Shown here piece by piece: positions 16,665 to 32,000 of a stretch of 32,000 bases of DNA (positions are counted from its first letter, which is position 1; the number at the start of each line of letters is the position of its first letter). Source of the DNA: Caldimicrobium thiodismutans (lineage in GTDB: Bacteria > Desulfobacterota > Thermodesulfobacteria > Thermodesulfobacteriales > Thermodesulfobacteriaceae); contig NZ_AP014945.1 of the NCBI RefSeq assembly GCF_001548275.1, positions 570,001 through 602,000 of the forward strand, in the 5' to 3' direction. Below the pieces are notes generated by a model. That model saw nothing but the letters and a program-made list of their open reading frames with translations. It did no database searches and had not been told where the DNA came from. The position numbers and the translations under genes were made by a program.

Positions 16665-17684
16665 ATGAACTTAGTATTTAGTATCCTTATGCTTATCATT
16701 TTAATCCTTATCCCCGTGATAGGGGTAGGGGCTCTTGGCCTTAATAGTTTATTTGCTATTTTTATTCCCTATTTGGGATTTGCTCTCTTCTTTTTTGGTT
16801 TGATTTATCGCATGATAGATTGGGCCCGCTCTCCACAACCTTTTAAAATTCCCACTACCTGTGGTCAACAGAAAAGTCTTTCCTGGATTAAAAGAAGCAG
16901 GCTTGAATCACCAGCTACCACTTGGGAAGTTTATTTAAGAATGTTTTTTGAGGTCTTTCTATTCAGGTCACTCTTCAGGAATCTAAGGGCAGATTTTGAT
17001 GGAAAGCGTCTCATCTATGGATCAGCTAAATGGCTCTGGCTTGGAGCTATTTTATTTCATGTATCATTTTTGATTATTTTAATCAGACACCTTAGATTCT
17101 TTGTTTATCCAGTTCCCGGGGTTATAACAACTATTGATTTTGTTGATAGTTTCTTCCAGCTGGGTCTTCCTCCTATTTATCTAACAGACGCATTAATTCT
17201 TGCAGGACTCGGCTTTCTTCTTTTGAGGAGGCTTATTGATGCTAAGGTAAATTATCTATCCTATGCCTCAGATTATTTTCCCCTCTTATTAATTATTACT
17301 ATTGCTGCTACAGGTATCTTGATGAGGCTTTATATTAAACCCGATTTATATGCTATAAAACAATTAGCTTATGGACTTGCCACCTTTAATCCTGTCATGC
17401 CTGAAGGAAAATTAAGTCTTCTCTTTTATATTCATCTCTTTCTTGTTAGTTCATTAGCAGCCTATTTTCCCTTTAGTAAGCTTGTGCACATGGTTGGTGT
17501 CTTTTTTAGTCCCACAAGAAATATGGCTAATGATAACAGGATGAAAAGACATGTTAATCCCTGGGATTATCCTGTTAAATATACCACCTATTGTGATTGG
17601 CAGGAAAAGTTTAGAGATGTTATGGAAGAGGCTGGAATTCCCATTGATGATGAATGGTGTAAAGAAACTCAAAAGCAGGCCTAA
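16665..17684 (+). CDS. dsrM: DsrM, NarI-like dihaem b membrane subunit of the DsrMKJOP complex
   Basis: This is a polytopic membrane protein of 339 aa with NarI/HdrE-like helices. It is followed by an HdrD-like dsrK. An SD (GAGGGGAG) lies upstream. Confidence 0.85.
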   Translation: MNLVFSILMLIILILIPVIGVGALGLNSLFAIFIPYLGFALFFFGLIYRMIDWARSPQPFKIPTTCGQQKSLSWIKRSRLESPATTWEVYLRMFFEVFLFRSLFRNLRADFDGKRLIYGSAKWLWLGAILFHVSFLIILIRHLRFFVYPVPGVITTIDFVDSFFQLGLPPIYLTDALILAGLGFLLLRRLIDAKVNYLSYASDYFPLLLIITIAATGILMRLYIKPDLYAIKQLAYGLATFNPVMPEGKLSLLFYIHLFLVSSLAAYFPFSKLVHMVGVFFSPTRNMANDNRMKRHVNPWDYPVKYTTYCDWQEKFRDVMEEAGIPIDDEWCKETQKQA

Positions 17685-17698
17685 GGAGGAGGAAAGAG

Positions 17699-19315
17699 AT
17701 GAGTAAACTTCCCAAACCAGATGAATTACTCAAGGATTTGGATTTACATAAAACACCTGAAAAGCATTGGATGGATATTGCGCCTGAATTTAAGCCAGGC
17801 AAGTTTTGTTATGCTGTTGAGCCTCAAGTTATGGAAGATCTTGGAAGGCCCCATCTTGGAAAATGGCAACCTTATGATGAAAAATGGCCCTTACCTGATG
17901 ATTGGAAAGAGCGTATTTTAAAGGGAATTCGTGATCGCATGGAAAGATTTAGATCCTTCAAGCTTTTTATGGATATATGTGTGAGATGTGGGGCTTGTGC
18001 TGATAAATGCCATTATTTTCTTGGATCAGGCGATCCAAAAAACATGCCTGTTTTAAGAGCAGAACTAATTAGATCCATTATTAAGGGAGAATTTTCCTTT
18101 TTTGGTAAGCTCTTTGGAAGAATGGCTGGGGCTCGTCCTTTAACTGAAGAGGTCTTAAAAGAATGGTTTTATTATTTTTATCAGTGCACTGAATGTAGAA
18201 GGTGTTCTGTTTTTTGCCCTTATGGAATTGATACGGCAGAAGTTACTATAATAATGAGAGATCTTTTACACGAGCTTGGTATAGCTACAGACTGGGCAAT
18301 GAAGCCAGTAAGATTTTCTCATTTTATAGGTAATCATATCGGACTTCAGCCTCATACTATAAAAGAAAATATAGAGTTTCTATTAGGCGACATAGCAGAG
18401 ATTACAGGATTAAATATAGAAGTTCCAATAAATAAGAAAGGAGCTGAAATCCTTTTTGTTACTCCCTCTGCAGATTTTTTTGCTGATCCAGGTATATATA
18501 CCTTTATGGGGTATGTTCTTTTATTTCATCACATTGGTCTTGATTATACTATTAGTACCTATGCCTCAGAGGGAGGAAATTTTGGATTTTTTAATGCTGT
18601 AGAACTGGCTAAAAAACTTCATGCTAAGATTTATGAAGAAGCCAGGAGGCTTAAAGTAAAATGGATCCTTGGTGGAGAGTGTGGTCACATGTGGAGGGTC
18701 TGGCATCAGTATCATAATACTTGGTTTGGACCCTTTAATTACATGGATATTCCAAGATCTCCAATAACTGGAACAGTCTTTGAACATGCTAAGGACAATA
18801 AAATAGTGCATATCTGTGAGTTTACAGCAGATCTTATAGCACATGGGAAACTTAAATTTGATCCTTCCAGAAATGATCATGTAATTGTTACATTCCATGA
18901 TTCATGTAACACTTCCAGGGGTATGGGAATCTTTGAGGAGCCCAGATTTATCTTAAAGAATGTCTGCAATAATTTTGTAGAGATGCCTGAAAACACCATT
19001 CGAGAAAAGACCTTTTGCTGTGGAAGTGGTTCTGGTTTAAATGCAGACGAATATATGGAGATGAGAATGAGAGGGGGGTTCCCACGAGCCAATGCTGTGC
19101 AATATGTAAATCAGAAATATGGAGTAAATACAATGGCTTGTATATGTGCTATTGATAGGGCAGTATTGCCCACTCTTATGAAATATTGGGTTCCCGGAGT
19201 GGAAATAGCAGGAGTTCATGAGTTAGTTGGAAATGCCCTGATAATGGAGGGTGAAAAGGAAAGAACAACCGACCTCAGATATAGACCACTAAAAGGAATG
19301 GAAGAGGAGGTATAA
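17699..19315 (+). CDS. dsrK: DsrK, HdrD-like iron-sulfur catalytic subunit
   Basis: Two ferredoxin-type motifs are present: CVRCGACADKC and CTECRRCSVFCP. CCG-type Cys-rich domains are present (FCCGSGSGL, DSCNTSRG). Length is 538 aa, with an SD (AGGAGGAGG). Confidence 0.9.
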   Translation: MSKLPKPDELLKDLDLHKTPEKHWMDIAPEFKPGKFCYAVEPQVMEDLGRPHLGKWQPYDEKWPLPDDWKERILKGIRDRMERFRSFKLFMDICVRCGACADKCHYFLGSGDPKNMPVLRAELIRSIIKGEFSFFGKLFGRMAGARPLTEEVLKEWFYYFYQCTECRRCSVFCPYGIDTAEVTIIMRDLLHELGIATDWAMKPVRFSHFIGNHIGLQPHTIKENIEFLLGDIAEITGLNIEVPINKKGAEILFVTPSADFFADPGIYTFMGYVLLFHHIGLDYTISTYASEGGNFGFFNAVELAKKLHAKIYEEARRLKVKWILGGECGHMWRVWHQYHNTWFGPFNYMDIPRSPITGTVFEHAKDNKIVHICEFTADLIAHGKLKFDPSRNDHVIVTFHDSCNTSRGMGIFEEPRFILKNVCNNFVEMPENTIREKTFCCGSGSGLNADEYMEMRMRGGFPRANAVQYVNQKYGVNTMACICAIDRAVLPTLMKYWVPGVEIAGVHELVGNALIMEGEKERTTDLRYRPLKGMEEEV

Positions 19316-19318
19316 GTC

Positions 19319-19705
19319 ATGTATAATACAGGGAAAGTTCTTTTGGGAATAATTGTTTTTATATGCTTTTTTGCTATTCCTTTTTGGTTGAATTTAGGTA
19401 AGGTGTCTGCTCTTCCAAAGCCCGAATTACCAAAAGATGAAAAAAAATGTATTGAAGATGTCCAGTATATGAAGGCGTATCACATGAAATTACTGGATAA
19501 GTGGCGAAAAGAAAAGGTGCGAGAAGGAAATATTAATTATATAAATAATGAAGGAAAAATATATAAAATGAGCTTACAGAGAACTTGTATGAAATGCCAT
19601 ACAAGTAAAGAGAAATTTTGTGATAGATGCCATACAACATTGGTAACACACCCTGATTGTTGGGATTGTCATATAGCTCCTGAGGAGGTTAAAAAATGGC
19701 AATAA
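19319..19705 (+). CDS. dsrJ: DsrJ, periplasmic trihaem cytochrome c
   Basis: An N-terminal signal anchor is followed by three CxxCH motifs (CMKCH, CDRCH, CWDCH). An upstream conserved Cys (KKCIEDV) sits where DsrJ carries its Cys haem ligand. Confidence 0.9.
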   Translation: MYNTGKVLLGIIVFICFFAIPFWLNLGKVSALPKPELPKDEKKCIEDVQYMKAYHMKLLDKWRKEKVREGNINYINNEGKIYKMSLQRTCMKCHTSKEKFCDRCHTTLVTHPDCWDCHIAPEEVKKWQ

Positions 19706-20490
19706 AAAGGAGAGATTTTTTAAAAATTCTTGGGGTTGGAGGCATATCCACTATAGGAGTGGCTGGTATTGGCAGTCTTTATTCAAGGGCTGAGGTAGAA
19801 GTTGTTCCCCATACACCCCCGCAAGGGGCATTGAAAGCTAAAAGATGGGGAATGGTGATTGATGTGAGAAAGTGTATAGAATCTGGAGAAGAATGTATCA
19901 AAAATTGCGAGGCAATTCAAGCTTGTCATTTAACCCACAATGTGCCAAATATACCGGATAAAAAAAAGGAAATTAAATGGATCTGGATAGATAATTTTGA
20001 GCATGCCTTTCCTGATTTAAAAGATCAAAAAATTGTTGAACACCTGAGTAGATTCCCCTTTTTCCTTTTATGTAATCACTGCGAAAATCCTCCCTGTGTG
20101 CGTGTTTGCCCTACTAAAGCGACCTTTAAAAGATCAGATGGGATAGTTATGATGGATTTTCATAGATGTATTGGATGTCGTTTCTGTATGGCTGGTTGTC
20201 CTTATGGTTCAAGATCATTTAACTGGATAGACCCGAGACCTTATCTAACTAAGGTTAATCCTGAATTTCCCACTCGTAAACCAGGTGTAGTTGAAAAATG
20301 CCTTTTCTGTTATGAAAGGTTAGATGAGGGAAAAATCCCAGCTTGCGTTGAAGCTTGCAAATCTCAAGCTTTAATTTTTGGAGATTTGAATGACCCCGAG
20401 TCCGAGATTAATAAAATTTTAAAAGAAAGAGTAAGCTTAACGAGAAAACCTGAACTTGGAACAAATCCGTCAGTTTTTTATGTAATTTAA
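19696..20490 (+). CDS. dsrO: DsrO, Tat-exported 4Fe-4S ferredoxin-like subunit
   Basis: The twin-arginine signal is MAIKRRDFLKILGVGG. Fe-S motifs are CNHCENPPCVRVCP, CIGCRFCMAGCP and CLFC...ACVEAC. The gene overlaps dsrJ by 10 nt. Confidence 0.9.
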   Translation: MAIKRRDFLKILGVGGISTIGVAGIGSLYSRAEVEVVPHTPPQGALKAKRWGMVIDVRKCIESGEECIKNCEAIQACHLTHNVPNIPDKKKEIKWIWIDNFEHAFPDLKDQKIVEHLSRFPFFLLCNHCENPPCVRVCPTKATFKRSDGIVMMDFHRCIGCRFCMAGCPYGSRSFNWIDPRPYLTKVNPEFPTRKPGVVEKCLFCYERLDEGKIPACVEACKSQALIFGDLNDPESEINKILKERVSLTRKPELGTNPSVFYVI

Positions 20491-20518
20491 ATCCTATTTA
20501 TATTAGGGAGGGAGACAG

Positions 20519-21694
20519 ATGCTTGAACATGCACTTAAAGGCTCTAAGAAATATTGGTTATGGCTTGGATTCTTAGGTATTTTTATAATAACAGGAGCCT
20601 ATTTTTATTTACAACAGTTAAAAATAGGCCTTGGAATAACTGGAATGAGTAGAGATGTATCTTGGGCTTTTTATATCGCCAATTTCACCTTTCTGGTTGG
20701 AGTGGCTGCCTCAGCAGTTACTATAGTCCTTCCATATTATTGGCATAATCATAAAGTTTACGGAAAAATGACAATCTTAGGTGAATTTTTGGCTGTCTCT
20801 GCTGTAACAATGTGTTTATTATTTGTAGTAATTGATATGGGACAACCTATGCGTGTCTTTAATGTTCTTAGATATCCAACACCTAATTCTATCCTTTTTT
20901 ACGATGTTATAGTTTTGAATGGATACTTTATATTAAATTTAATTTGTGCCTGGACAGCCTTGCATTCTTATTATAAAGATTCAAGTTATCCATCCTGGTT
21001 AAAACCTGTAATATTTTTAGCTATTATATGGGCACCTTTTATTCATATAGTTACCGCATTTATTTATCAAGGCTTACCTGGTAGACATTATTGGCTTTCT
21101 GCAATTATGGCTCCTAAATTTTTAGTTTCAGCTTTTTCTTCAGGACCAGCATTACTTATTATTCTTGCAGCATTAATAAAAAAAGTAGCCAATTTTGATA
21201 TTGGTGAGAAGGCCTTTGAGACCTTAGGTAAAACAATGACTTATTTTTACCTGGCTTTTCTGGGCTTTTATCTTTTTGAGGTTTTTACATCTTTCTATAG
21301 TGGAATACCTGGACATAAAGCACCTTTTATTTATCTTTTTGTTGGATATGAAGGGCATGCTGAATGGGTGCCTTTTATGTGGACAGCGGTTATTTTAGCT
21401 ATTATATCTCTTATTATACTTCTTAATCCTCGCACAAGAAAAAACCAGACTTTACTGGTTCTTGCAGCTTTTACTGTTTTTTTCAGTGCCTATATAGAAA
21501 AAGGAATAGGTTTGGTAACCGGTGGATTTACACCCAATCCCTTTGAAACTGTTACACCTTATCGTCCAACCCTTCCCGAGGTCCTTATATCATTGGGAGT
21601 TTGGTCAACTGGGTTTTTGGTTCTGACGGTGCTTTATAAAATTACTATTGAAGTAGATAAGAGAAAAAATCTGGCAGTTAAACTGAAAGGTTAA
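20519..21694 (+). CDS. dsrP: DsrP, NrfD/PsrC-type integral membrane quinone-interacting subunit
   Basis: This is a 391-aa protein with about 10 TM helices and an NrfD-like N-terminus (YWLWLGFLGIFIITGAYFYLQQ). It is the last gene of the dsrMKJOP order. An SD (GGGAGGGAG) is present. Confidence 0.88.
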   Translation: MLEHALKGSKKYWLWLGFLGIFIITGAYFYLQQLKIGLGITGMSRDVSWAFYIANFTFLVGVAASAVTIVLPYYWHNHKVYGKMTILGEFLAVSAVTMCLLFVVIDMGQPMRVFNVLRYPTPNSILFYDVIVLNGYFILNLICAWTALHSYYKDSSYPSWLKPVIFLAIIWAPFIHIVTAFIYQGLPGRHYWLSAIMAPKFLVSAFSSGPALLIILAALIKKVANFDIGEKAFETLGKTMTYFYLAFLGFYLFEVFTSFYSGIPGHKAPFIYLFVGYEGHAEWVPFMWTAVILAIISLIILLNPRTRKNQTLLVLAAFTVFFSAYIEKGIGLVTGGFTPNPFETVTPYRPTLPEVLISLGVWSTGFLVLTVLYKITIEVDKRKNLAVKLKG

Positions 21695-21718
21695 AATAAA
21701 TTATAGCGTCTTATCATA

Positions 21719-21746
21719 AAAGGGGGATTTCCCCCCTTCTTTTTTT
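21719..21746 (+). terminator. Rho-independent terminator after dsrP
   Basis: The sequence is AAGGGGG-ATTT-CCCCC(C)TT followed by CTTTTTTT. It starts 25 nt after the dsrP stop. Confidence 0.75.
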
Positions 21747-21772
21747 ATAATTTTGTATTATTTTTATAAACT

Positions 21773-23155
21773 ATGAGTTTAATTTTCAACATTCCCCGCT
21801 TAATTATTTCCTCTCATAAAGGTGGTGCAGGAAAAACCATCTTCACTCTCGGCCTAATTCAAATCCTGAAAGAAAAAGGATATAAAATTGCTCCCTTCAA
21901 AAAAGGACCAGACTATATTGATGCTGGCTGGTTAAGTAAAATTTCTGGAACTCCCTGTAGAAATCTTGATCTTTTTTTATTTGATAAAAAGCATAATTTT
22001 TATTCCTTTTTTAGGGGAGCGGAAAAAGCTGATTTAGCAATTATAGAGGGAAACAGGGGCTTATATGACGGTGTTGATGAATATGGTAGCTGCAGTTCCG
22101 CTGAGTTAGCCAAACTCCTTAAAGCTCCTATCATTCTTGTTCTTGACTGTACTAAAGCCACAAGAAGTATGGCAGCTCTTTTAAAAGGGTTTCTTGAGTT
22201 TGATACTGAAATCCCCATAAAAGGTGTGGTATTAAATAATATTGCAAGACCTCGCCATGAAAATATTATTAGAAGTTCAATTGAAAAATATACAGAGACT
22301 AAAGTTTTAGGTGTTATTCCTCGTTTAAAGAATGTTGTTAAGGAAAGACATCTTGGCTTAGTAACACATTTTGAGAAAGATAGCTTATTTTTAAAAGATT
22401 TAAGTGCTAAATTAATTGAGAATGTTGATTTGGAGAGTATTATTGAAATTGCAAAAGATTCTCAAGCTCTTGATATACCCTCTTTATCTTTTAATTCTGT
22501 TAAGACATATGATTTAAAGATAGGAGTTTTTTTAGATCCAGCTTTTCAATTTTATTATCCTGAAAACCTTGAATTTTTGCAATCTCAAGGAGCTGAATTG
22601 GTTTATATAAATTCCTTGAAAGATAGCCATCTACCTTCTGGTATTTCTGGATTATATCTTGGGGGAGGATTTCCTGAAATTTTTGCTGAAGATTTATCAG
22701 GCAATGTTGAATTAAGAAAAGAAGTAAAGGAAGCAGTAGAATCCGGAATGCCAGTTTATGCTGAGTGTGGTGGATTAATGTATCTTGGAGAGGAAATTGA
22801 ATGGCAAGGGAAAAAATTCCCAATGACTGGAGTTTTACCAGTTAGATTTAAAGTTGATAGTAAACCCCATGGGCATGGATATGTTATTGCAAAAGTTGAG
22901 GGTAAGAATCCTTACTTTAACATAGGAGATACTATTTTGGGGCACGAATTTCATTATTCTTATCCTTATCAAATAGAGTTAAAAAAGGGTATGAGCACTA
23001 TTTTTAAACTTGAAAAAGGGACAGGACTTGATGGTTTTAGAGATGGAATTCATTATAAAAATTTACTTGCAAGCTATACCCATTTTCATATTTTTAGTGT
23101 AAAATTCTGGGCGGAAAATTTTTTAAACTTAGCAGCAAAATTTAAAACAACATAA
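21773..23155 (+). CDS. dsrN: Cobyrinate a,c-diamide synthase-family amidotransferase, probably DsrN (sirohaem amidase)
   Basis: The N-terminal P-loop is RLIISSHKGGAGKT. The C-terminal GATase has the nucleophile in YAECGGLMYLG, plus HEFHYS. The dsrN call rests on location directly after dsrMKJOP and before a ferredoxin, with no other cbi/cob genes nearby. A true CbiA or CfbB-like role cannot be excluded. Confidence 0.6.
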   Translation: MSLIFNIPRLIISSHKGGAGKTIFTLGLIQILKEKGYKIAPFKKGPDYIDAGWLSKISGTPCRNLDLFLFDKKHNFYSFFRGAEKADLAIIEGNRGLYDGVDEYGSCSSAELAKLLKAPIILVLDCTKATRSMAALLKGFLEFDTEIPIKGVVLNNIARPRHENIIRSSIEKYTETKVLGVIPRLKNVVKERHLGLVTHFEKDSLFLKDLSAKLIENVDLESIIEIAKDSQALDIPSLSFNSVKTYDLKIGVFLDPAFQFYYPENLEFLQSQGAELVYINSLKDSHLPSGISGLYLGGGFPEIFAEDLSGNVELRKEVKEAVESGMPVYAECGGLMYLGEEIEWQGKKFPMTGVLPVRFKVDSKPHGHGYVIAKVEGKNPYFNIGDTILGHEFHYSYPYQIELKKGMSTIFKLEKGTGLDGFRDGIHYKNLLASYTHFHIFSVKFWAENFLNLAAKFKTT

Positions 23156-23368: not shown

Positions 23369-23392
23369 AAGGGGGCATAGCCCCCTTTTATG
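23369..23392 (+). terminator. Rho-independent terminator after the ferredoxin gene
   Basis: The sequence is AAGGGGGC-ATA-GCCCCCTT followed by TTAT. It starts 9 nt after the ferredoxin stop. Its T tract contains the ATG annotated as the start of the next ORF. Confidence 0.7.
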
Positions 23393-24298
23393 TATATTAG
23401 CCGAAAGATTTGTTCAGCAGGTTATTCTTATAGAATTTGTGAATCCTTTTTTGAAGCCCCATTTTATAAAAGCAGAATTCTTTTTGATCTTGGCATTTCC
23501 CCTCAGAAATATATAACCTATTATAGTGATGTCTCATTTTCAATAGATCTTGAAGATGAATTAGCAAGATCTGGATGTATAACTGATCAATTTGAATTAG
23601 AGGAGCTTTTTCTTCGGTTTTTAACGCCTGAAGCTCAGCGCTGGGTTATTTTTTCTCAAAATAGAAGAGCTACAAGAAAGACCTCAACTCATCAAAGTTT
23701 TCAGATTAATGAGTTTCACTGGTTTGATAGAATCAGGCTCATTACTCTTAAACTTGACCACAGAGAACCACAGAGGGTTGTAAATAGAAAGTTCCCTTTT
23801 TTTAGTAAGCTTTTGAATAAATCAAGGGATGAGATTGAGAATCTTCTCTGGGATATGGAGGATCGTCTTAATTTTAGAGAAAAATCCCGCTATATAAATG
23901 CTATTTTTGGCCTTCAGAGAGCTACAAGCCTTGAAGAACGAGATAATATCTTTCTTAAGACTTTATGTGAAATAGCTAAGGATACCACTTATTACCTGGA
24001 CCTTTCAGAGACAGAGGTTTTAAAAAATTATCTCTCCCGGTATGTCTGGTTTTATTTTGATGCAATAACCTGGAGAAGGGCTCCACGCATTTATCAACAT
24101 ATGGAGGTTTCTTTATATCAAGAGCTTGCTTTCTATTTGGGGGTTTCTGTTGAAGTATTGATCAATAGCTCTAAAAAAGAAGTTCTTAAGATTTTCAGAC
24201 AAAAAATTTTTGAAATTCATCCAGATCGAGGTGGATCACACGAAGAATTTGTAAAGGTGAGAAAATTAATGGAGGATTTTATAAAATTAAGATTTTAG
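23390..24298 (+). CDS. Hypothetical protein with a C-terminal J-domain (DnaJ-like co-chaperone domain)
   Basis: The last ~60 aa read LYQELAFYLGVSVEVLINSSKKEVLKIFRQKIFEIHPDRGGSHEEFVKVRKLMEDF, which gives helix II, the HPD tripeptide and helix III. I do not recognise the N-terminal ~235 aa. The start is uncertain: there is no SD and the ATG lies inside the upstream terminator tail. Confidence 0.6.
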   Translation: MYISRKICSAGYSYRICESFFEAPFYKSRILFDLGISPQKYITYYSDVSFSIDLEDELARSGCITDQFELEELFLRFLTPEAQRWVIFSQNRRATRKTSTHQSFQINEFHWFDRIRLITLKLDHREPQRVVNRKFPFFSKLLNKSRDEIENLLWDMEDRLNFREKSRYINAIFGLQRATSLEERDNIFLKTLCEIAKDTTYYLDLSETEVLKNYLSRYVWFYFDAITWRRAPRIYQHMEVSLYQELAFYLGVSVEVLINSSKKEVLKIFRQKIFEIHPDRGGSHEEFVKVRKLMEDFIKLRF

Positions 24299-25022: not shown

Positions 25023-25535
25023 TTAAAAAACAGTGGTCAAATACTGTGAGAATTTTTCTTTTAATTTCTCAGCTACCACCTTAGGGACAAGATCATCTAC
25101 TTGCCCTCCGAATTTAGCGGCTTCTTTAATTATAGAAGAGCTAAGGAAGATATAGCGCAAACTCGGCATCAGAAAAAGGGTATCGATGGAATTAGAGAGT
25201 TTCCTATTCATTAAAGCAAGTTGCATCTCATATTCAAAATCAGATACTGCCCTGAGTCCTCTTATGATAACACAGGCACCTTTTTGTTTAGTAAACTCAA
25301 CTAACAAGCCTGAAAAGCTCTCGACTTCAACTCTTTCAGAGAGATTTATTTCTTCTAAGGCCTTTTTTACCATAAAAAGGCGCTCTTCTATGGTAAAAAG
25401 CGGTTTTTTAGCAGGATTTTCACCTATGGCTATAATAATCCGATCAAAAAATTGGAGGGCCCTTTTAATCAGGTCTAAATGGCCGTTAGTTATGGGATCA
25501 AAGGTTCCCGGATACACTGCGATCTTGGGGCACAT
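25023..25535 (-). CDS. coaD: Phosphopantetheine adenylyltransferase
   Basis: The sequence KIAVYPGTFDPITNGHLDLIKRA carries the T/HxGH nucleotidyltransferase motif, and ISSSIIKE is present. Length is 170 aa. Confidence 0.93.
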   Translation of the reverse strand: MCPKIAVYPGTFDPITNGHLDLIKRALQFFDRIIIAIGENPAKKPLFTIEERLFMVKKALEEINLSERVEVESFSGLLVEFTKQKGACVIIRGLRAVSDFEYEMQLALMNRKLSNSIDTLFLMPSLRYIFLSSSIIKEAAKFGGQVDDLVPKVVAEKLKEKFSQYLTTVF

Positions 25536-27003
25536 TCTGGACTTCCTGGTTCGTATTCAGGATATTAATAAATAACAATTTTAACACCGGTTTTTTATCA
25601 ATTTTTCCCATACCCAAGAGACCCTCAAGGACCTCAATATAATTTGTTTCTTTGTCTTTAACAGCTCTTAAAAGAAAAGCCAGTTCATGAACTTCACGAG
25701 AAGCTATTTTTTCATATCTGTAAAGCCCCCAGAGAATTTTAATAAATTGATAATCTCCCTTTTCAAAGTTCTCAAAGATCTTAAGTAAGGCCCCATAATT
25801 TCTTTCAAGGCCTTCATCATGCAAAGGCAAAAGGGCAGGAAAATAGTGAATTTTTAGGTCTTTTTTGTAATCCTCATAGCTATAATAAAAAGGCCAGAAT
25901 CTGAATTCTCTTCGGCTCTGGGTATTATTTTCAAAGATTTCATTTTCCTTAGAAAGAAGTAAAAAGCGGTGCTCCTTTTCAAAGTAGGTTGAATTACCAT
26001 GGGTAATGGTGTCTTCTTTGTAAAAATAAAAAGGCCAGAGAAGAAAAGAGTCAAGGGAGTCAGCTTTTTTGACATAACCGTAAAAAGGCCAAAATCTTTT
26101 TCCAGTAATTTCTTTACCTCTTATGCTCCTGTAAAAGGGCCATGGGGCATCAATCTGTTCATAAAAGGGATCGTATCCACAAGTTTTTTGAAAAAAGGGC
26201 CAAAGATAAATAGTTTTTTCATAGGCATCAGTCCTTTCCTTGCCATAAAAGGGAAAATAAAATACCTTTTCTTCAAAATTTCCTGCATCATCTTTATAAT
26301 GAGTTTTAATATAGAAGGGCCAGAGAATAAATTTTCTCTCCTCTTCTCCTTCCCTGAAGTGTCCATAGAAAGGCCAGAATTTAAATCCTCCGTAAGATTG
26401 GTCCTCTTTGGATTTGGCTTTAGCAATCCGGATAAAAGGCCAAAGAATGTTTTGAGCAGTATATTTTTCATAGGTTACCTTAGAATAAAAAGGCCAGAGA
26501 ATAAAGGTAATTTCTTCTCGTCCGAAGCGATCTTTAAGATGACCATAAAAAGGAAAAACCCCCCCATAAGTCTCATTTTGAGCAGTTTTTCCAAAAAAAA
26601 CAGGGAAATACTCCCACTTTGAACCCTCTTTTTCTTCCGAGGGAACTTTTTCAATTTTTTTGTTTATAAGAGGTATAAGCTTAAAGGTGGTAGTCTCATT
26701 ATCCGAGCTATAGACGCCAAGAGGGGATAAAAAATAGGCTTTTTTGGTGTCAGGTTGTTCAACTGAAGAGTAAAAGGGACGATAGGAGGTGCCATTTTCT
26801 GATTCAAATTGGTATTTGTAAATAAAAGGCCCAAGGAATTCCTTTCTTTCATAACCTCTGATTTTATTTTTTGAATAAACTCCTAAAGGCCAAAAATTAT
26901 AGCGTTTTTCCACCAAATCTTCAAAGGCATAGGCCTTAGCAAAAAAGATCAGGAATATAGATATGAAAGATAAAAACACTTTTTTGGATTTCATTAAAAC
27001 CAT
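25498..27003 (-). CDS. Secreted W-P-F-Y repeat protein (501 aa), function unknown
   Basis: The signal peptide is KKVFLSFISIFLIFFAKAYA/FE. There are nine exact W-P-F motifs, for example FILWPFYSKV, FKFWPFYGHF and FLLWPFYFYK. About eight degenerate x-P-[FLV]-x motifs also occur, spaced 12-30 aa apart. At the DNA level this appears as repeated AAAAGGCCAGA on the plus strand. Confidence 0.75.
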   Translation of the reverse strand: MVLMKSKKVFLSFISIFLIFFAKAYAFEDLVEKRYNFWPLGVYSKNKIRGYERKEFLGPFIYKYQFESENGTSYRPFYSSVEQPDTKKAYFLSPLGVYSSDNETTTFKLIPLINKKIEKVPSEEKEGSKWEYFPVFFGKTAQNETYGGVFPFYGHLKDRFGREEITFILWPFYSKVTYEKYTAQNILWPFIRIAKAKSKEDQSYGGFKFWPFYGHFREGEEERKFILWPFYIKTHYKDDAGNFEEKVFYFPFYGKERTDAYEKTIYLWPFFQKTCGYDPFYEQIDAPWPFYRSIRGKEITGKRFWPFYGYVKKADSLDSFLLWPFYFYKEDTITHGNSTYFEKEHRFLLLSKENEIFENNTQSRREFRFWPFYYSYEDYKKDLKIHYFPALLPLHDEGLERNYGALLKIFENFEKGDYQFIKILWGLYRYEKIASREVHELAFLLRAVKDKETNYIEVLEGLLGMGKIDKKPVLKLLFINILNTNQEVQNVPQDRSVSGNL

Positions 27004-27052: not shown

Positions 27053-30000
27053 TTATCTTCTTAAATAACCTCTAAAAAAAGAAAGGGCAAAAAGGCTGAA
27101 AATAAAAAGATAGAGATAGGGAATACTCCCTCCACCTGAGATACCTCCTCCCTCCTTAGAAGAAGAAAATTTCCTTTCTTCAAGAAGATAACCTTTAACC
27201 CTTTGAAATCCATTAAAAGGGGCCCTATTCTTTGAGGCTTCTATACTACGCCCCCCTTCTCCTTGATTAGCCTTAGGCATAGCTTCCCTTAATTCCTCCA
27301 AAGGAGCTTTATTCATTACACTAATAGATAAATAACCTTTAGTAATAAATTTTGTAAGAAGAGGATTATTACAGGTGTGTTCACAGCAGGCAAGTCCAAC
27401 CTTTGCCACGGTCTCCATATATTCCTCAGTTAAATGCTCCATTATTTCCCTTTCTGCCTTAAAATAACTCTTTCTTATGGCCTCAAGAATTCTTCCAATC
27501 AGCGATTGATAACTGTGGAGATTTCCTGCCCTTTCAAAATATTTTTTTATTTCTAAACCATATTTATCTTTCACATAAACCTCATAAAAGGCTCTCCAGG
27601 TCCTTTCATCCACTACTTCGGGATTGGTTACCTGAAAGCCAAAGAGATGCTCAACCACTTTATCAATGAAACGCGCCCCTGCATAGCCCTCCTTAAGCAT
27701 AGCCCTAATCCACTGGGGATTAAGATAGCGAGAGCGAATCTCCCTTCCCATAAATTTAGAAAGACTCTCTTGATAGGGCTTTTTGGGATCTGAGAGATTG
27801 GTTATCATCACCATGGGGGATTTGCCATCAAGAGTTCTTATAGCAAGAGTTAGCCCACCCAGATATTGAAAATAGTCATCATTATCAAGGGTTGCAAAAA
27901 CTTGGGTGGCTCTGCTGTGAAGGGCAATCTCCGTGCCAGAAAGATTTCTCTTAAAAAGAAATTCCTTTAAGTTTTCGGTATAATTTCCCTCCCTCTCAAA
28001 GGGTTCTCCCCAAAAACCCTGACCATAAAGAAAACTCATCCGGCGAATATAGACCCTGGCAACCTCACTTTCCCTTTGCCAGGTGTGGCTTGCAGAAATA
28101 ACTGTGTCAAGCCCTGTGCCATAGCCCCCCTGTTCTTCAGAAAAAATTCTCACCCTTGAAAGCCTTTCAGCAAGCTCCTCCTTTACTCCAAGTCTTTTCA
28201 GCTCCTCCTTAAGCCTTTTCTGATTTCTTTTTAAAGGACTTTCCTCTTTTGAAGTCAGAGCAAGACTTACTGCCTCATCAAGAAGTTTAACTAAATTAGA
28301 AAAAAGATCCCGGTAAAGCCCTGAAATAGTCATCACCACATCAATGCGAGGTCTCTTTAACTCTTCCTCAGGAATAAGCTCAAGGCCAATTACCCTTCCC
28401 CGCTCATCCCATCTTGGTCTTACCCCAAGTAAAGAAAGAATTTGAGATTCCATAATCCCTTCATGCCTTATAGTTTCAACAGCCCAGAGCACAAAGGCAA
28501 CTTTTTCAGGATATCTTCCCTCTTTTTCCCGGTATTTTTCAAGGAGCTCATAAGCAAGCCTTTTCCCAAGTTCATAGGTCCTTGGGGAAGGTATTCGAGA
28601 AGGATCAAAAGCAAAGAAGTTTTTTCCTGTGGGAAGGCTCTCGGGACTTCTTATAGGATCATTTCCGGGACCAGGAGAGATATACTCCCCTCTTAGAGCC
28701 CTGAGAAGATTTCTAAGCTCCCTTTCTGCTGATTCCCTGAGAACCCTTTGATAATCCTCCTTTGTGCCACTTCCGGTTAGTTCACTTAAAAGTCTTGCTG
28801 TCTCTTCTAAGTCCTCCTCTTCATAGGGTTTTCCAAAAGTATGAAGACCATAAGGATTTATAGCCTCTTCAAGCTCTGTCAGATAGTCTTCTATTTTTTC
28901 AAGAAATTCCTGAGAAAGCCCCTTTTCCTGAGTTAATTTACTAAAATCTATTTCAAGATCCCTATCAAGGGCAAGTTTTTTTATTAAAGTAAGGATTTCT
29001 TCAGCTTTGGCAGAAAGAGAAAGCTCTGAGCCCTTATCTTTTAAGGCACGATATTCCCCAAGAAGGGCTTTAAGGGTCTTTAGATCAGGATTAAGGGAGC
29101 TTTTTTTCAAGGGAGGAACAAGGTGATCAATGATTACTGCCATGCCTCTTCTTTTTGCTTGAAGCCCTTCTCCCACATCATCCACTATATATGGATAAAT
29201 ATCCGGGATTTCTCCCAGCAAGACTTCAGGATCATCCTCCTCAAGAAAGCCTATTTCTCTTCCTGGAAGCCACTCTAAGGTGCCATGGGTTCCAAGGTGA
29301 ATAACTGCATCAGCTTGAAAAATTTTTCTCAAATATAGATAAAAGGCAATATACTGATGATGGGGAGCAAGAAGGGAGGAATGATAGGCCCTATCAAGGT
29401 TTTGCTCCCAGGCCCTTGAAGGTTGAGGCCCAACAAGAATATTTCCAAATCTCAAAAGGGGCAAAAGGAAAAACTTCTTACCTCTTTCATCTTGGTAAAC
29501 CATAATTTGGGCATCCTCTGGAGATCCCCAGTCTTTAATAACTCTCTCCTTAAAGGCCTTAGGTAACTCCTCAAACAAGGTCTCATAGGTCTCAAGAGGA
29601 AGAAGAAGGATCTTACCAGATTGAGCAAGAAAATTAATCTCAGAAGGTGCCCACTTGGCCACATTTCTCCCATAGGTGAATAAAATCTCTTTCAATTCCT
29701 CCTTAGATAGCCTTGAAAATTCCTCTCCCAGATTGTATCCTTCCCTTTCAAGTCCTTTGAGAATATTCCAGATGCTTTCGGGAAGCACATTTAAGTAAGC
29801 GGCACCTATGTTTTGCTTGCCAGGGGGATAGTTGTAGTAAATCAGGGCTATTCTTTTTTCTCCTTCCCTTTTTTCTTGAAGTTTAAGATAGGCCTTTACC
29901 TTTTTTACTAAAGATGAAATCCCTTGAGAATAGGGAATTTCAGTCAATAAAATTTCCCCTGTTTCAGGATTGATTTCCTTTCTTTTGAAGCCAACAATGG

Positions 30001-31006
30001 TTGGACTGATAGCTCCAATAAGTTCTGGAGTAAAAATTTGCCAAACCCTTTCCATAATTCCCAGACCAAGCTTAGAATTTCTATAGGTTTCCTCATCTCC
30101 CTCATAGGGTATAATCAGATTGAAAAGGGGAACATTGAGTCTGGTCAAAACTGAAACCACCTCTTCAGGCTTTATCCCCACTTTCAAAGATAGCCCAAGA
30201 AGTGCCCTAATTCTGAAAGGTCCCTTTAAAAAGACTCTCTCAAGAACCCTGGCATCAGGATATCCAAAGGCAGGAATAACCTCAATATCTTCCTCCCTAA
30301 AAGCAGAAACAATCTTACAAATTACTTCGGTTTGAAAATTTAAAAGATTATTTCTATAAAAAGTAAGCCCGATTTTCGGCCTCTTTAACCTTTCTGGCTC
30401 CCCTTCTAATTTAGCTAAAAATGCAGAAAATTCCTCTTCAGAATAAACCCTCTTTTCATCACAGTCATAAACCCCAAAAAGGGGCATCCTCTTTACAGGA
30501 GAAGGATTGAGAGGGTATTGAAAATATTGACGAAGAAGATAGAGATAAAGATTATAAAGATTTTCAGGGCTACTCTCTCTATTGTAAGCTTCAATTGTTG
30601 GATCAACCTCTATTCCGAGTTTTTTCATCTCCTCATCATAGGAACCTTCAGCATAAAGCCCAAAAATAAAGGCTTTCTTCTCTTTTAAAGAAGGAAGATA
30701 CTCCTTTACCCTTTCATAAGCCCTTCTTCCCATAAGGTTTAGTAATAAAAGATCAGCCTCTTTAAGCTCCCTTTCAATCAAATCCTTTTTTTCCTCAAGA
30801 CTCAAAATTCTTATTCTCGGTAAGGGAAGCCCCCTTTCTGAAAGGTCTCTAAGAAGCATCTCCCTTGCAGAACTAAAACTCTTTATCTGGGAGCTTGTTG
30901 GTATCACTACTATATTAATGGATTTCTCTCCCTGGTCAGCAAAGAGAAAGGAAGAACAAAGAAAAAATAAAATTAGGCTCAAAAATAGACTATTCTTCAG
31001 GGACAT
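27053..31006 (-). CDS. CobN/Mg-chelatase large-subunit family protein (1317 aa) with an N-terminal signal peptide and a C-terminal membrane anchor
   Basis: Family blocks such as IHLGTHGTLEWLPGRE and VFATLDNDDYFQYLGG are present along the full length. The N-terminus MSLKNSLFLSLILFFLCSSFLFA/DQ looks like a Sec signal. The C-terminus GGGISGGGSIPYLYLFIFSLFALSFFRGYLRR is Gly-rich, then a TM segment, then a basic tail. The start overlaps the upstream gene by 17 nt. Confidence 0.85.
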   Translation of the reverse strand: MSLKNSLFLSLILFFLCSSFLFADQGEKSINIVVIPTSSQIKSFSSAREMLLRDLSERGLPLPRIRILSLEEKKDLIERELKEADLLLLNLMGRRAYERVKEYLPSLKEKKAFIFGLYAEGSYDEEMKKLGIEVDPTIEAYNRESSPENLYNLYLYLLRQYFQYPLNPSPVKRMPLFGVYDCDEKRVYSEEEFSAFLAKLEGEPERLKRPKIGLTFYRNNLLNFQTEVICKIVSAFREEDIEVIPAFGYPDARVLERVFLKGPFRIRALLGLSLKVGIKPEEVVSVLTRLNVPLFNLIIPYEGDEETYRNSKLGLGIMERVWQIFTPELIGAISPTIVGFKRKEINPETGEILLTEIPYSQGISSLVKKVKAYLKLQEKREGEKRIALIYYNYPPGKQNIGAAYLNVLPESIWNILKGLEREGYNLGEEFSRLSKEELKEILFTYGRNVAKWAPSEINFLAQSGKILLLPLETYETLFEELPKAFKERVIKDWGSPEDAQIMVYQDERGKKFFLLPLLRFGNILVGPQPSRAWEQNLDRAYHSSLLAPHHQYIAFYLYLRKIFQADAVIHLGTHGTLEWLPGREIGFLEEDDPEVLLGEIPDIYPYIVDDVGEGLQAKRRGMAVIIDHLVPPLKKSSLNPDLKTLKALLGEYRALKDKGSELSLSAKAEEILTLIKKLALDRDLEIDFSKLTQEKGLSQEFLEKIEDYLTELEEAINPYGLHTFGKPYEEEDLEETARLLSELTGSGTKEDYQRVLRESAERELRNLLRALRGEYISPGPGNDPIRSPESLPTGKNFFAFDPSRIPSPRTYELGKRLAYELLEKYREKEGRYPEKVAFVLWAVETIRHEGIMESQILSLLGVRPRWDERGRVIGLELIPEEELKRPRIDVVMTISGLYRDLFSNLVKLLDEAVSLALTSKEESPLKRNQKRLKEELKRLGVKEELAERLSRVRIFSEEQGGYGTGLDTVISASHTWQRESEVARVYIRRMSFLYGQGFWGEPFEREGNYTENLKEFLFKRNLSGTEIALHSRATQVFATLDNDDYFQYLGGLTLAIRTLDGKSPMVMITNLSDPKKPYQESLSKFMGREIRSRYLNPQWIRAMLKEGYAGARFIDKVVEHLFGFQVTNPEVVDERTWRAFYEVYVKDKYGLEIKKYFERAGNLHSYQSLIGRILEAIRKSYFKAEREIMEHLTEEYMETVAKVGLACCEHTCNNPLLTKFITKGYLSISVMNKAPLEELREAMPKANQGEGGRSIEASKNRAPFNGFQRVKGYLLEERKFSSSKEGGGISGGGSIPYLYLFIFSLFALSFFRGYLRR

Positions 31007-31343
31007 AAACTATTCTTCCATCTTTTAATTGATAGGCAGTTCCAAGTTTTATGCCTTCCCCTTGAAGTTCTTTTTTAGTGACCTTTTTCACTTTTATTTC
31101 TTTACCTTTTTTTATTATAAACTCAAGTTCTCCATTTGGGGCTTTTTTTACCATAGTAAATTCACTTCTGGGATTTAATAAATCTATGAGGTGATAGACC
31201 ATAAAGAGACTTACAATAAGACTTACAATAAAAACCACACTCAAATCAAAGAGATTGGCAACCCCTGTGAGAGGGTCTTCAATAAGAGGTTCTTCCGTTT
31301 CAAGAAGGGATTTTTTTCTCCTTAAGAGTCTAAAATAACTCAT
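30990..31343 (-). CDS. DUF2149-family single-pass membrane protein (ExbD/TolR-like position)
   Basis: DPLTGVANLFDLSVVFIVSLIVSLF matches my memory of the DUF2149 conserved N-terminal TM region. Length is 117 aa. It overlaps the ExbB-like gene by 4 nt. Confidence 0.6.
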   Translation of the reverse strand: MSYFRLLRRKKSLLETEEPLIEDPLTGVANLFDLSVVFIVSLIVSLFMVYHLIDLLNPRSEFTMVKKAPNGELEFIIKKGKEIKVKKVTKKELQGEGIKLGTAYQLKDGRIVYVPEE

Positions 31344-31906
31344 CTTTCAACCTCGGAAGAGGAAATTTTTATTCTTTCCCTTTCAGCCAGGTAATAAATT
31401 TTACTTAAGGTTTCCTTATTCCAGCGTTCTTTGGTGATACTTAAGAGATAGGAGAGAGCTCCTATTGAGAGGCCAATGATTGCGGTGGTAAAGGCAGTAA
31501 CCATTCGTTCTGCCATAACTCCAAGGTTTCCCTTGGCAAGTTCTGAAAGGGCAACTCCCATGGGGATAAGAGTTCCAAGAAGGCCTAAAGCAGGCCCAAG
31601 CCTTACCATCACTCTTACCCTGTCAAGCCCTTTAAGAAGAGAAAGCTCAACCCTGTCAACAAGAAGAGAAACCTCAATCAAAAGGGCCTCTCCCTGAAAC
31701 TTCTCTTCCAACTTCTTTAGCTCTGCCTCAAAGAATTCCACATAAAAGTTTCTCCCCTCCCTTCTTTCAAAATATTCCCTTAAAATCTTTCCACTTTGAT
31801 ACACTAAATAAAAGATAAGAAAAGTGAGAGTAAGAAGCACTGGATAGAGAAGACTTTCTGCCAGAATAAAAAGAAAGCCCTCAAGAAGGTAAAAAGGATT
31901 GGTCAT
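31340..31906 (-). CDS. MotA/TolQ/ExbB proton-channel family protein (188 aa)
   Basis: The channel signature is RLGPALGLLGTLIPMGVALSEL...AFTTAIIGLSIGALSYL, and an N-terminal TM helix is present. The ATGA start/stop overlaps the upstream partial ORF. Confidence 0.8.
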   Translation of the reverse strand: MTNPFYLLEGFLFILAESLLYPVLLTLTFLIFYLVYQSGKILREYFERREGRNFYVEFFEAELKKLEEKFQGEALLIEVSLLVDRVELSLLKGLDRVRVMVRLGPALGLLGTLIPMGVALSELAKGNLGVMAERMVTAFTTAIIGLSIGALSYLLSITKERWNKETLSKIYYLAERERIKISSSEVER

Positions 31907-32000
31907 AGCTTCCTCCTGATTTTGAATTGGAAAAACCCTGCTAAAAGGAAAATTAAAAAGAGAATAGAGAAAACTGCCAAAGTTTCCCCCTGATCTGGGA
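31903..32000 (-). CDS. 3' end of an unidentified CDS ending in a TM helix plus basic tail (5' part lies outside the window)
   Basis: The minus-strand frame is open from the window edge and reads PDQGETLAVFSILFLIFLLAGFFQFKIRRKL-stop. The stop overlaps the ExbB-like ATG as ATGA. Only 32 codons are visible. Confidence 0.45.
   Translation of the reverse strand, partial: PDQGETLAVFSILFLIFLLAGFFQFKIRRKL

Follow-up and report, generated by a model that had tools for sequence, protein, structure and literature searches.

The present analysis concerns a 32,000-nucleotide stretch of the genome of Caldimicrobium thiodismutans, a member of the Thermodesulfobacteriaceae (contig NZ_AP014945.1, positions 570,001 to 602,000; hereafter the window). 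Four genes overlap on its minus strand; their products are the end of a DUF2162 protein, a MotA/ExbB-like protein, a DUF2149 protein and a large CobN-family protein (Table 1). On balance, this locus probably specifies a periplasmic (de)chelatase of the BtuS type that is linked to cobalt or corrinoids and has its own proton-driven partner pair. The genes are joined by two ATGA overlaps (31903-31906 and 31340-31343) and by a third of 17 nt (30990-31006), an arrangement that an earlier reading of the bare DNA (the original prediction) had described with exactly these coordinates, and an AGGAGG Shine-Dalgarno sequence (31912-31917) lies 5 nt ahead of the MotA-like start. The first gene had been taken for a tail-anchored partial open reading frame (ORF); contigs L001 and L002, which carry the same genes, reveal instead a polytopic DUF2162 membrane protein of 233 aa (Pfam, 9.5e-24), whose final helix is the segment inside the window.

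Table 1. Features of the operon and the adjacent gene, in window coordinates
Feature	Position	Strand	Basis or remark
3' end of the DUF2162 gene (31 codons plus stop)	31903..32000	minus	translation ends ...LAVFSILFLIFLLAGFFQFKIRRKL, then stop; remainder of the gene lies past the window
MotA/ExbB/TolQ-family channel protein, 188 aa, HmuU counterpart	31340..31906	minus	Pfam MotA_ExbB (PF01618), 5.6e-10, above gathering score
DUF2149 single-pass membrane protein, 117 aa, HmuV counterpart	30990..31343	minus	Pfam DUF2149, 3.3e-28
BtuS-type CobN-family protein, 1317 aa	27053..31006	minus	Pfam CobN-Mg_chel, E=0
Predicted signal peptide or N-terminal signal anchor, codons 1-23, MSLKNSLFLSLILFFLCSSFLFA	30938..31006	minus	hydropathy 2.73 over 12 residues
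Active-site motif TLDNDDYFQYLGG, residues 1039-1051, cobaltochelatase type	27854..27892	minus	alignment to CobN structures
His-574 codon (GTHG), superfamily-wide catalytic histidine, equivalent of HmuS His-538	29285..29287	minus	alignment
Predicted C-terminal membrane anchor, about residues 1291-1311, then RGYLRR	27074..27136	minus	hydropathy
Adjacent 501-aa protein with WPFY repeats, predicted to be exported	25498..27003	minus	probably outside the system

At 100% identity, the 1317-aa protein matches the NCBI entry 'cobaltochelatase subunit CobN [Caldimicrobium thiodismutans]', a name that would make it an ordinary subunit of the aerobic-type CobNST cobaltochelatase. Although its active-site motif is indeed of the CobN type, this assignment is effectively refuted, as the original prediction had anticipated: the protein falls below all NCBIfam CobN/BchH equivalog cut-offs (e.g., 907 vs 1619 and 644 vs 829), it bears predicted export and anchor signals, relatives carry the chelatase CbiK, and no ChlI/D or CobS/T gene, and hence no AAA+ partner, occurs within the window or over the 10 kb past it (52 kb examined). 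Among 135 ORFs neighbouring the related loci, the 25 commonest Pfam families likewise do not include ChlI/ChlD or CobS/T, while tetrapyrrole-synthesis genes and HupE/UreJ are represented there. The NCBI label is a mislabel produced by annotation pipelines. This matters for genome-based prediction of B12 pathways, in which such a gene is wrongly counted as evidence for aerobic CobNST.

By a hydropathy heuristic, the N-terminus (MSLKNSLFLSLILFFLCSSFLFA/DQ) reads as a signal peptide or signal anchor, with a comparable segment in 73 of 81 relatives, and the C-terminus (IPYLYLFIFSLFALSFFRGYLRR) as a membrane helix followed by a basic tail, with an equivalent end in 76 of the 81. These values agree with the Sec-type signal and transmembrane anchor proposed originally. 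Since the hydropathy and positive-inside pattern is conserved and compatible with export and attachment on the periplasmic side of the membrane, the CobN-like protein is predicted to face the periplasm while anchored in the inner membrane.

In a scan of species-representative genomes, the CobN-like protein had at least 579 relatives. The best 80 loci, which span Thermodesulfobacteriota, Nitrospirota, Geobacterales, Syntrophales, Verrucomicrobiota, Brocadiia, Ignavibacteria, Cytophagales, Betaproteobacteria and Methylomonas, were annotated with hidden Markov models (HMMs) built for this analysis. A second, independent sample comprised metagenome loci retrieved via DUF2149 (DUF2149 proteins 54-71% identical); protein searches with DUF2149 and DUF2162 recovered close relatives only, and none of these searches reached HmuT/U/V of Bacteroides or archaeal members. 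MotA-like, DUF2149 and CobN-like genes occur together in all of the approximately 146 related loci with enough flanking DNA, bearing out the conserved co-occurrence that the original prediction had named as a check. In the 80 genome loci, retrieved via CobN, the triad is adjacent wherever flanking DNA sufficed, and among the metagenome loci a CobN-like gene is present in 66 of 66 and a MotA-like gene stands beside DUF2149 in 70 of 70. All loci examined show linkage and translational coupling of the MotA-like/DUF2149 pair with the CobN-like gene. DUF2162 is confined to the clade sharing 44% identity or more with the window protein, and a receptor adjoins the operon in most loci, in varying position.

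Gene order is not uniform among these loci. The hmu/Pseudomonas order (receptor, CobN-like, MotA-like, DUF2149) was encountered in metagenome loci L160 (2850-8360) and L165 (3134-8354), both of which still have a DUF2149 of the window type; upstream of the L165 operon lie cobalamin riboswitches. In Thermodesulfobacteriaceae-type loci, the operon begins directly after an oppositely oriented tRNA gene (L088, 6226-6299; L092, 6200-6273; L090, 2397-2470) and a convergent ExbB-ExbD-TonB set comes after it; these three loci have no riboswitch.

Regulation and gene content of the relatives link the module to B12 and cobalt. Rfam places a cobalamin riboswitch immediately before the first operon gene in L004, L005 (in tandem) and L006; at least 28 genome loci have one at this site (covariance model plus Rfam spot checks), as do 28 of the 40 metagenome loci having at least 3 kb of upstream DNA; overall, about 70% of relatives carry one ahead of the operon. 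Because the covariance model (R1), built from those Rfam hits (five sequences), missed at least three sites found by Rfam, these fractions are lower bounds. Homologues of CbiZ, an adenosylcobinamide amidohydrolase, occur in or beside the operon in approximately 17 genome loci and nearly all have a predicted signal peptide (L001 6346-7164, L005 14066-15028, L016, L020, L024, L029 and L050), while in L037 (13813-15840) and L167 (2145-4151) the operon itself contains a BtuF-CbiZ fusion. As these CbiZ homologues are exported or fused to a BtuF-like periplasmic binding domain, they point to corrinoid processing outside the cytoplasm. Genes for cobalt or nickel permeases are interleaved as well, with CbiM(NQO) adjacent in approximately 12 loci, NicO in L167, and HupE/UreJ in Methylomonas operons, where it separates the receptor from MotA. 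In L005, CbiK and other anaerobic cbi genes stand beside the operon, which argues that the CobN-like protein of that locus is not the biosynthetic chelatase. The riboswitches, the interleaved CbiZ and cobalt transporter genes and the CobN-type motif together speak against the exclusion of B12 in the original prediction.

The Caldimicrobium locus itself shares part of this setting. Beyond base 32000, after a 123-nt gap, the contigs with the same genes show a divergently oriented TonB-dependent receptor, a CbiZ homologue that starts with a predicted signal peptide, and a second receptor, followed by a ParA/CbiA-like ATPase and a Peripla_BP_2/FecCD/ATP-binding cassette (ABC) transporter. With two receptors divergently upstream, the locus shows the clustering with a TonB-dependent receptor that is a trait of BtuS. 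The original prediction had pointed to this upstream sequence as a place where a TonB-dependent receptor, ChlI/D-like AAA+ genes or a Fur box might lie; the receptors are there, no ChlI/D-like genes occur in the 10 kb past the window, and a Fur box has no match within three mismatches in the 123-nt divergent promoter region.

Conservation within the CobN-like family further specifies the type of active site. H574 and E613 are invariant in 79 of 79 relatives, although this feature (HFG(T/A)HG/Glu-577) is superfamily-wide and does not discriminate between family members; in HmuS, the membrane-bound haem de-chelatase demonstrated in 2025 with a 2.6 A structure from cryo-electron microscopy (PDB 9d26), the H538A exchange abolishes conversion of haem to protoporphyrin IX (PMC12583661). 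D1041 and D1044 are also invariant, and Q1047 is present in 78 of the 79. The motif that contains them, TLDNDDYFQYLGG, aligns with LLDSDDYYQFEGG of CobN structure 9uk9 and ADSDDYFQYHGG of 7c6o, as opposed to LSLDHVYEFMGG in HmuS. The active site is thus of the cobaltochelatase type (LDNDDYFQYLGG) and not of the HmuS type, the strictly conserved LSLDHxxEFMGG with its cation-binding His-1209 and Glu-1212 (for His-1209, PMC12583661). HmuS has its axial haem ligands, Met-79 and His-254, where head and neck meet. The position of HmuS His-254 (His-Gly-Arg) reads V-G-I in the window protein and is V, I, M or L, never His, in 79 relatives. The equivalent of the HmuS axial ligand Met-79 is M92, with Met in 49 of 79 relatives. 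The 120-residue Met-rich insertion of HmuS (domain IV, residues 780-898) is absent, the profile alignment skips HmuS residues 698-890, and in length the window protein falls short of HmuS by about 150 aa. His-254, this insertion and LSLDHxxEFMGG are among the traits by which the HmuS authors (Nath et al. 2025) delimit their family.

Several observations nevertheless weigh against a cobalt- or corrinoid-linked reading of the Caldimicrobium copy. Neither the window nor the 10 kb upstream yielded a cobalamin riboswitch (Rfam, gathering score or E<=5), the closest Thermodesulfobacteriaceae relatives (L008, L087-L093) likewise have none, and the neighbouring CbiZ is the sole corrinoid-specific marker in the window and its flanking contigs. 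The neighbouring receptor scores best with the TonB-hemin model and the ABC ATPase with a haem ABC model, both below the NCBIfam cut-off; for the receptor, binding protein and ABC genes, NCBIfam typing does not discriminate between haem, siderophore and B12. The family profile (29 members) scores 731 bits against HmuS 9d26, compared with 630 against CobN and 602 against ChlH, and the HmuS alignment runs on into a C-terminal extension, in which two cysteines are invariant (CxxxxC); on both grounds, the family is architecturally closest to HmuS. As for the partner pair, comparison of DUF2149 with the canonical ExbD of the same loci aligns their Asp residues, but with an hhalign E of 0.22 and a probability <1%. 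Moreover, we know of no enzyme that takes cobalt out of a corrin. Finally, joint loss of BtuS1 and BtuS2 in Bacteroides fragilis produced haem-iron, not B12, phenotypes (PMC6460266).

Alternatively, the protein could be a true HmuS orthologue, a haem de-chelatase of the periplasm that would supply the cell with iron by releasing Fe(II) from imported haem. HmuS is the best match among solved structures, M92 takes the place of Met-79, the signal, the C-terminal anchor, the CxxxxC extension and the MotA-like and DUF2149 partners are shared, and the haem-leaning neighbours and missing riboswitch would fit. Against this stand the absence of His-254, of the Met-rich insertion and of LSLDHxxEFMGG, the lack of HmuY and of a Fur box in the promoter region, the exported CbiZ next door, and the riboswitch control of most relatives, which together make the orthologue explanation distinctly unlikely. 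The system is most likely a sister of Hmu, the haem system of Bacteroides, with a link to cobalamin/cobalt, and this is favoured over haem handling.

Of the membrane partners, the MotA-like protein has three hydrophobic segments and a conserved GPxLGLLGTLIPMG motif. DUF2149 has one transmembrane helix carrying an invariant Asp33 (ANLFD), and with a mean column identity of 75% across phyla it is far more conserved than the chelatase, for which pairwise identity is approximately 40-45%. In its AlphaFold 2 model the transmembrane helix is confident, while the beta-rich periplasmic part is of low confidence. The DUF2149 gene occupies the slot expected for ExbD/TolR; given that the ExbD profile match is not significant, the protein is termed ExbD-like by position and topology alone. 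DUF2162 contains a PCPxC motif in a membrane helix, conserved in 38 homologues, and a Foldseek search of its AlphaFold 2 fold (predicted TM-score, pTM, 0.61) against the PDB gave nothing below E=1. In L050 (8420-9589), DUF2162 and the MotA-like protein form one 389-aa polypeptide, confirmed by Pfam; because of this fusion, DUF2162 is regarded as part of the complex. An apparent second fusion of approximately 465 aa in L098 (2194-3588) is indicated by the coordinates of our own HMMs alone. HupE/UreJ was observed in the operon position of DUF2162 in Methylomonas and one other proteobacterial locus (L056 7258-8403; L059 7748-8854; L086 4904-5911).

What the proton-channel pair drives is a separate matter. 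According to the published working models for HmuUV (PMC12583661) and PA1924 (PMC4542158), the MotA-like and DUF2149 proteins would be a specialised ExbB/ExbD powering the TonB-dependent receptor next to them without acting directly on the chelatase, and both the frequent proximity of a receptor and the alignment of the DUF2149 transmembrane Asp with that of ExbD are consistent with such a role. A canonical ExbB-ExbD-TonB set, however, is present besides the pair in at least 17 loci, which speaks against the pair serving the receptor alone. In addition, the pair is always coupled to the CobN-like gene while the receptor changes place, DUF2149 lacks significant ExbD profile similarity, and DUF2162 can be fused to MotA. 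We therefore consider a role confined to the receptor doubtful, although it retains an appreciable share of the probability, and suggest that the motor may act on the chelatase rather than on TonB.

A further alternative concerns the cargo. The system might take up free or loosely chelated metal (Co2+, possibly Zn2+ or Ni2+) through the TonB-dependent receptor, with the CobN-like protein serving as a periplasmic metal chaperone that feeds DUF2162, HupE or CbiMNQO. The homologous Pseudomonas aeruginosa genes PA1922-PA1925 belong to the Zur regulon, and their induction is tied to a rise in cellular cobalt (PMC4542158, PMC11761036); the adjacent permeases HupE/UreJ, NicO and CbiM and the PCPxC motif of DUF2162 would also suit metal transfer. 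Yet the family keeps a full 1300-aa chelatase body, the invariant catalytic His/Glu and the tetrapyrrole-cleft motifs, which is more than a chaperone needs, and the exported CbiZ and BtuF-CbiZ fusions in the operons point to a corrinoid ligand. On this evidence a chaperone function appears unlikely.

For the BtuS-type, corrinoid-linked (de)chelatase, the following sequence of events may be envisaged. The divergent TonB-dependent outer-membrane receptor would bring a cobalt tetrapyrrole (corrinoid) into the periplasm, where an exported CbiZ-type amidohydrolase may trim it. The periplasm-facing CobN-family protein, tethered by its C-terminal helix, would bind the macrocycle and move cobalt out of it, or possibly into it; corrinoid or cobalt as substrate, the direction of the reaction and the periplasmic placement are all inferred. 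The MotA/ExbB-like and DUF2149 pair would supply energy from the proton-motive force in an ExbB/ExbD-like arrangement, using the conserved membrane Asp, and DUF2162, with PCPxC in a membrane helix, would be part of the inner-membrane complex and may pass metal inward. The most specific version, a proton-motive-force-powered periplasmic cobalt de-chelatase in which corrinoid import and CbiZ trimming are followed by cobalt stripping, with the MotA-like/DUF2149 motor replacing CobST/ChlID and the metal entering via DUF2162, HupE or CbiMNQO, is speculative and, as a whole, improbable. If it were true, enzymatic demetallation of a corrin and a stator-type motor driving the chemistry of an enzyme would both be firsts. 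Irrespective of that, a chelatase-fold protein that is predicted to lie outside the cytoplasm and has a dedicated proton-channel pair in every relative examined poses a real open question, for which the cobalt-type active site, the exported CbiZ, the separate TonB sets in the same loci, the DUF2162-MotA fusion and the differing regulation of the module offer experimental handles.

Regarding the wider neighbourhood, the downstream side of the operon in the window holds the WPFY-repeat protein, CoaD and DUF3108, and the opposite strand holds dsrMKJOP and then a CobB homologue. The WPFY protein, which the original prediction had counted as an extra partner, has more than 12 WPFY/FPFYG-type repeats and no match in Pfam, NCBIfam or the PDB; it was rejected as a conserved partner, being present only in Caldimicrobium copies. 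A promoter-like site (27031-27004) lies in the 49-nt gap between the CobN-like and WPFY genes, and such sites are regionally not above chance. No Rfam family is found in the window at gathering score. The 123-nt divergent region (L001 9180-9302) contains a perfect 10-bp inverted repeat, CCTTGACAAG/CTTGTCAAGG, resembling two opposed -35 boxes (TTGACA), and besides it a 20-bp palindrome, ATGGTAAAAATTTATACCAT; no regulator was identified for them. In the metagenome-assembled genome (MAG) GCA_017880035.1, both the CobN-like gene (782 + 466 aa, L001 10901-14855) and the adjacent receptor (506 + 174 aa, L001 7190-9179) are split, while both are intact in the window/L002; the splits are probably assembly frameshifts.

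The dsrMKJOP-like set (window 16665-23155, plus strand) comprises Nitrate_red_gam, Fer4/CCG, a 128-aa ORF, Fer4_11 and NrfD, followed by the CobB/CbiA homologue. This 460-aa gene (21773-23155) scores above the NCBIfam CobB cut-off, but was rejected as B12 context because it comes directly after dsrMKJOP; by position, we take it to be most likely the DsrN sirohaem amidase. The host name 'thiodismutans' presumably denotes a sulfur disproportionator rather than a sulfate reducer, dsrMKJOP being present in the window nonetheless. A 302-aa ORF (23390-24298, plus strand) has no Pfam match, and its C-terminus (…IFEIHPDRGGSHEEFVKVRKLMEDF…) has an HPD motif reminiscent of a J-domain.

The original prediction regarded the module as essentially uncharacterised, but the kind of system is already known, though still poorly understood. 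BtuS was named in 2003 by Rodionov as a third CobN type, apart from CobN and ChlH, with a predicted role in metalloporphyrin salvage (as cited in PMC6460266), and in 2023 Mesle et al. judged hmu-like operons of B. fragilis that are preceded by cobalamin riboswitches 'likely not' to be haem systems (PMC10100974). Structure and activity of HmuS followed in 2025, and the roles of HmuT, HmuU and HmuV are still listed as unknown in published Hmu work. The kinship with the Bacteroidetes hmu locus that the original prediction had proposed is borne out by the literature: hmuYRSTUV of Bacteroidota encodes HmuY, a TonB-dependent receptor, the CobN-like HmuS, the membrane protein HmuT, the MotA/ExbB-like HmuU and the DUF2149 protein HmuV (PMC10434189).

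The closest parallels are with HmuS and the hmu operon of Bacteroides thetaiotaomicron and Porphyromonas gingivalis. HmuS proteins have a signal peptide and terminal transmembrane helices and are apparently periplasmic, with experimental support in P. gingivalis (PMC13227078). The window protein resembles them in its six-domain CobN/ChlH body, its signal or transmembrane start, the C-terminal anchor, the equivalents of His-538 and Glu-577, a Cys-containing C-terminal extension and a predicted periplasmic facing, and the operons share the HmuU-type MotA/ExbB-like protein, the HmuV-type DUF2149 and a TonB-dependent receptor. It differs in having LDNDDYFQYLGG in place of LSLDHxxEFMGG and in lacking the Met-rich insertion and His-254. 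The window locus also lacks HmuY and has the order DUF2162-MotA-DUF2149-CobN rather than S-T-U-V, and most of its relatives carry cobalamin riboswitches in place of the iron/haem control of hmu. With the BtuS family, as far as its cited description goes, the protein shares the distinction from bona fide CobN and ChlH/BchH, receptor clustering, predicted export and attachment, B12-element regulation in many genomes and predicted metalloporphyrin salvage; the Caldimicrobium copy, however, has no riboswitch.

Two proteobacterial clusters extend the comparison. PA1922-PA1925 of P. aeruginosa, compared by description, unites a receptor, CobN-like, ExbB/MotA-like and DUF2149 genes in one operon, but is regulated by Zur (zinc), has an hmu-like gene order and has no DUF2162 reported (PMC4542158, PMC9431628). 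The cobN-exbB-exbD-tonB cluster on plasmid pSZ77 of G. lovleyi (Glov_3667-3675) lies among cobalamin genes at annotation level, its role being stated as unknown (PMC3403914), and resembles the window locus in having a CobN homologue without CobST, flanking TonB-dependent receptors and a cobalamin-gene setting; a Trichlorobacter homologue (L005, L014) shares 45-46% identity with the window protein. The module thus comes in three regulatory flavours, namely iron/haem, B12 and zinc. With the class I chelatases CobNST and ChlHID, the window protein shares the chelatase fold and, with CobN, the cobalt-type active-site motif; those enzymes, however, are cytoplasmic and are driven by an AAA+ motor (CobST/ChlID), whereas in window-type loci no AAA+ partner is seen and the proton-channel pair is the invariant companion of the chelatase-fold protein.

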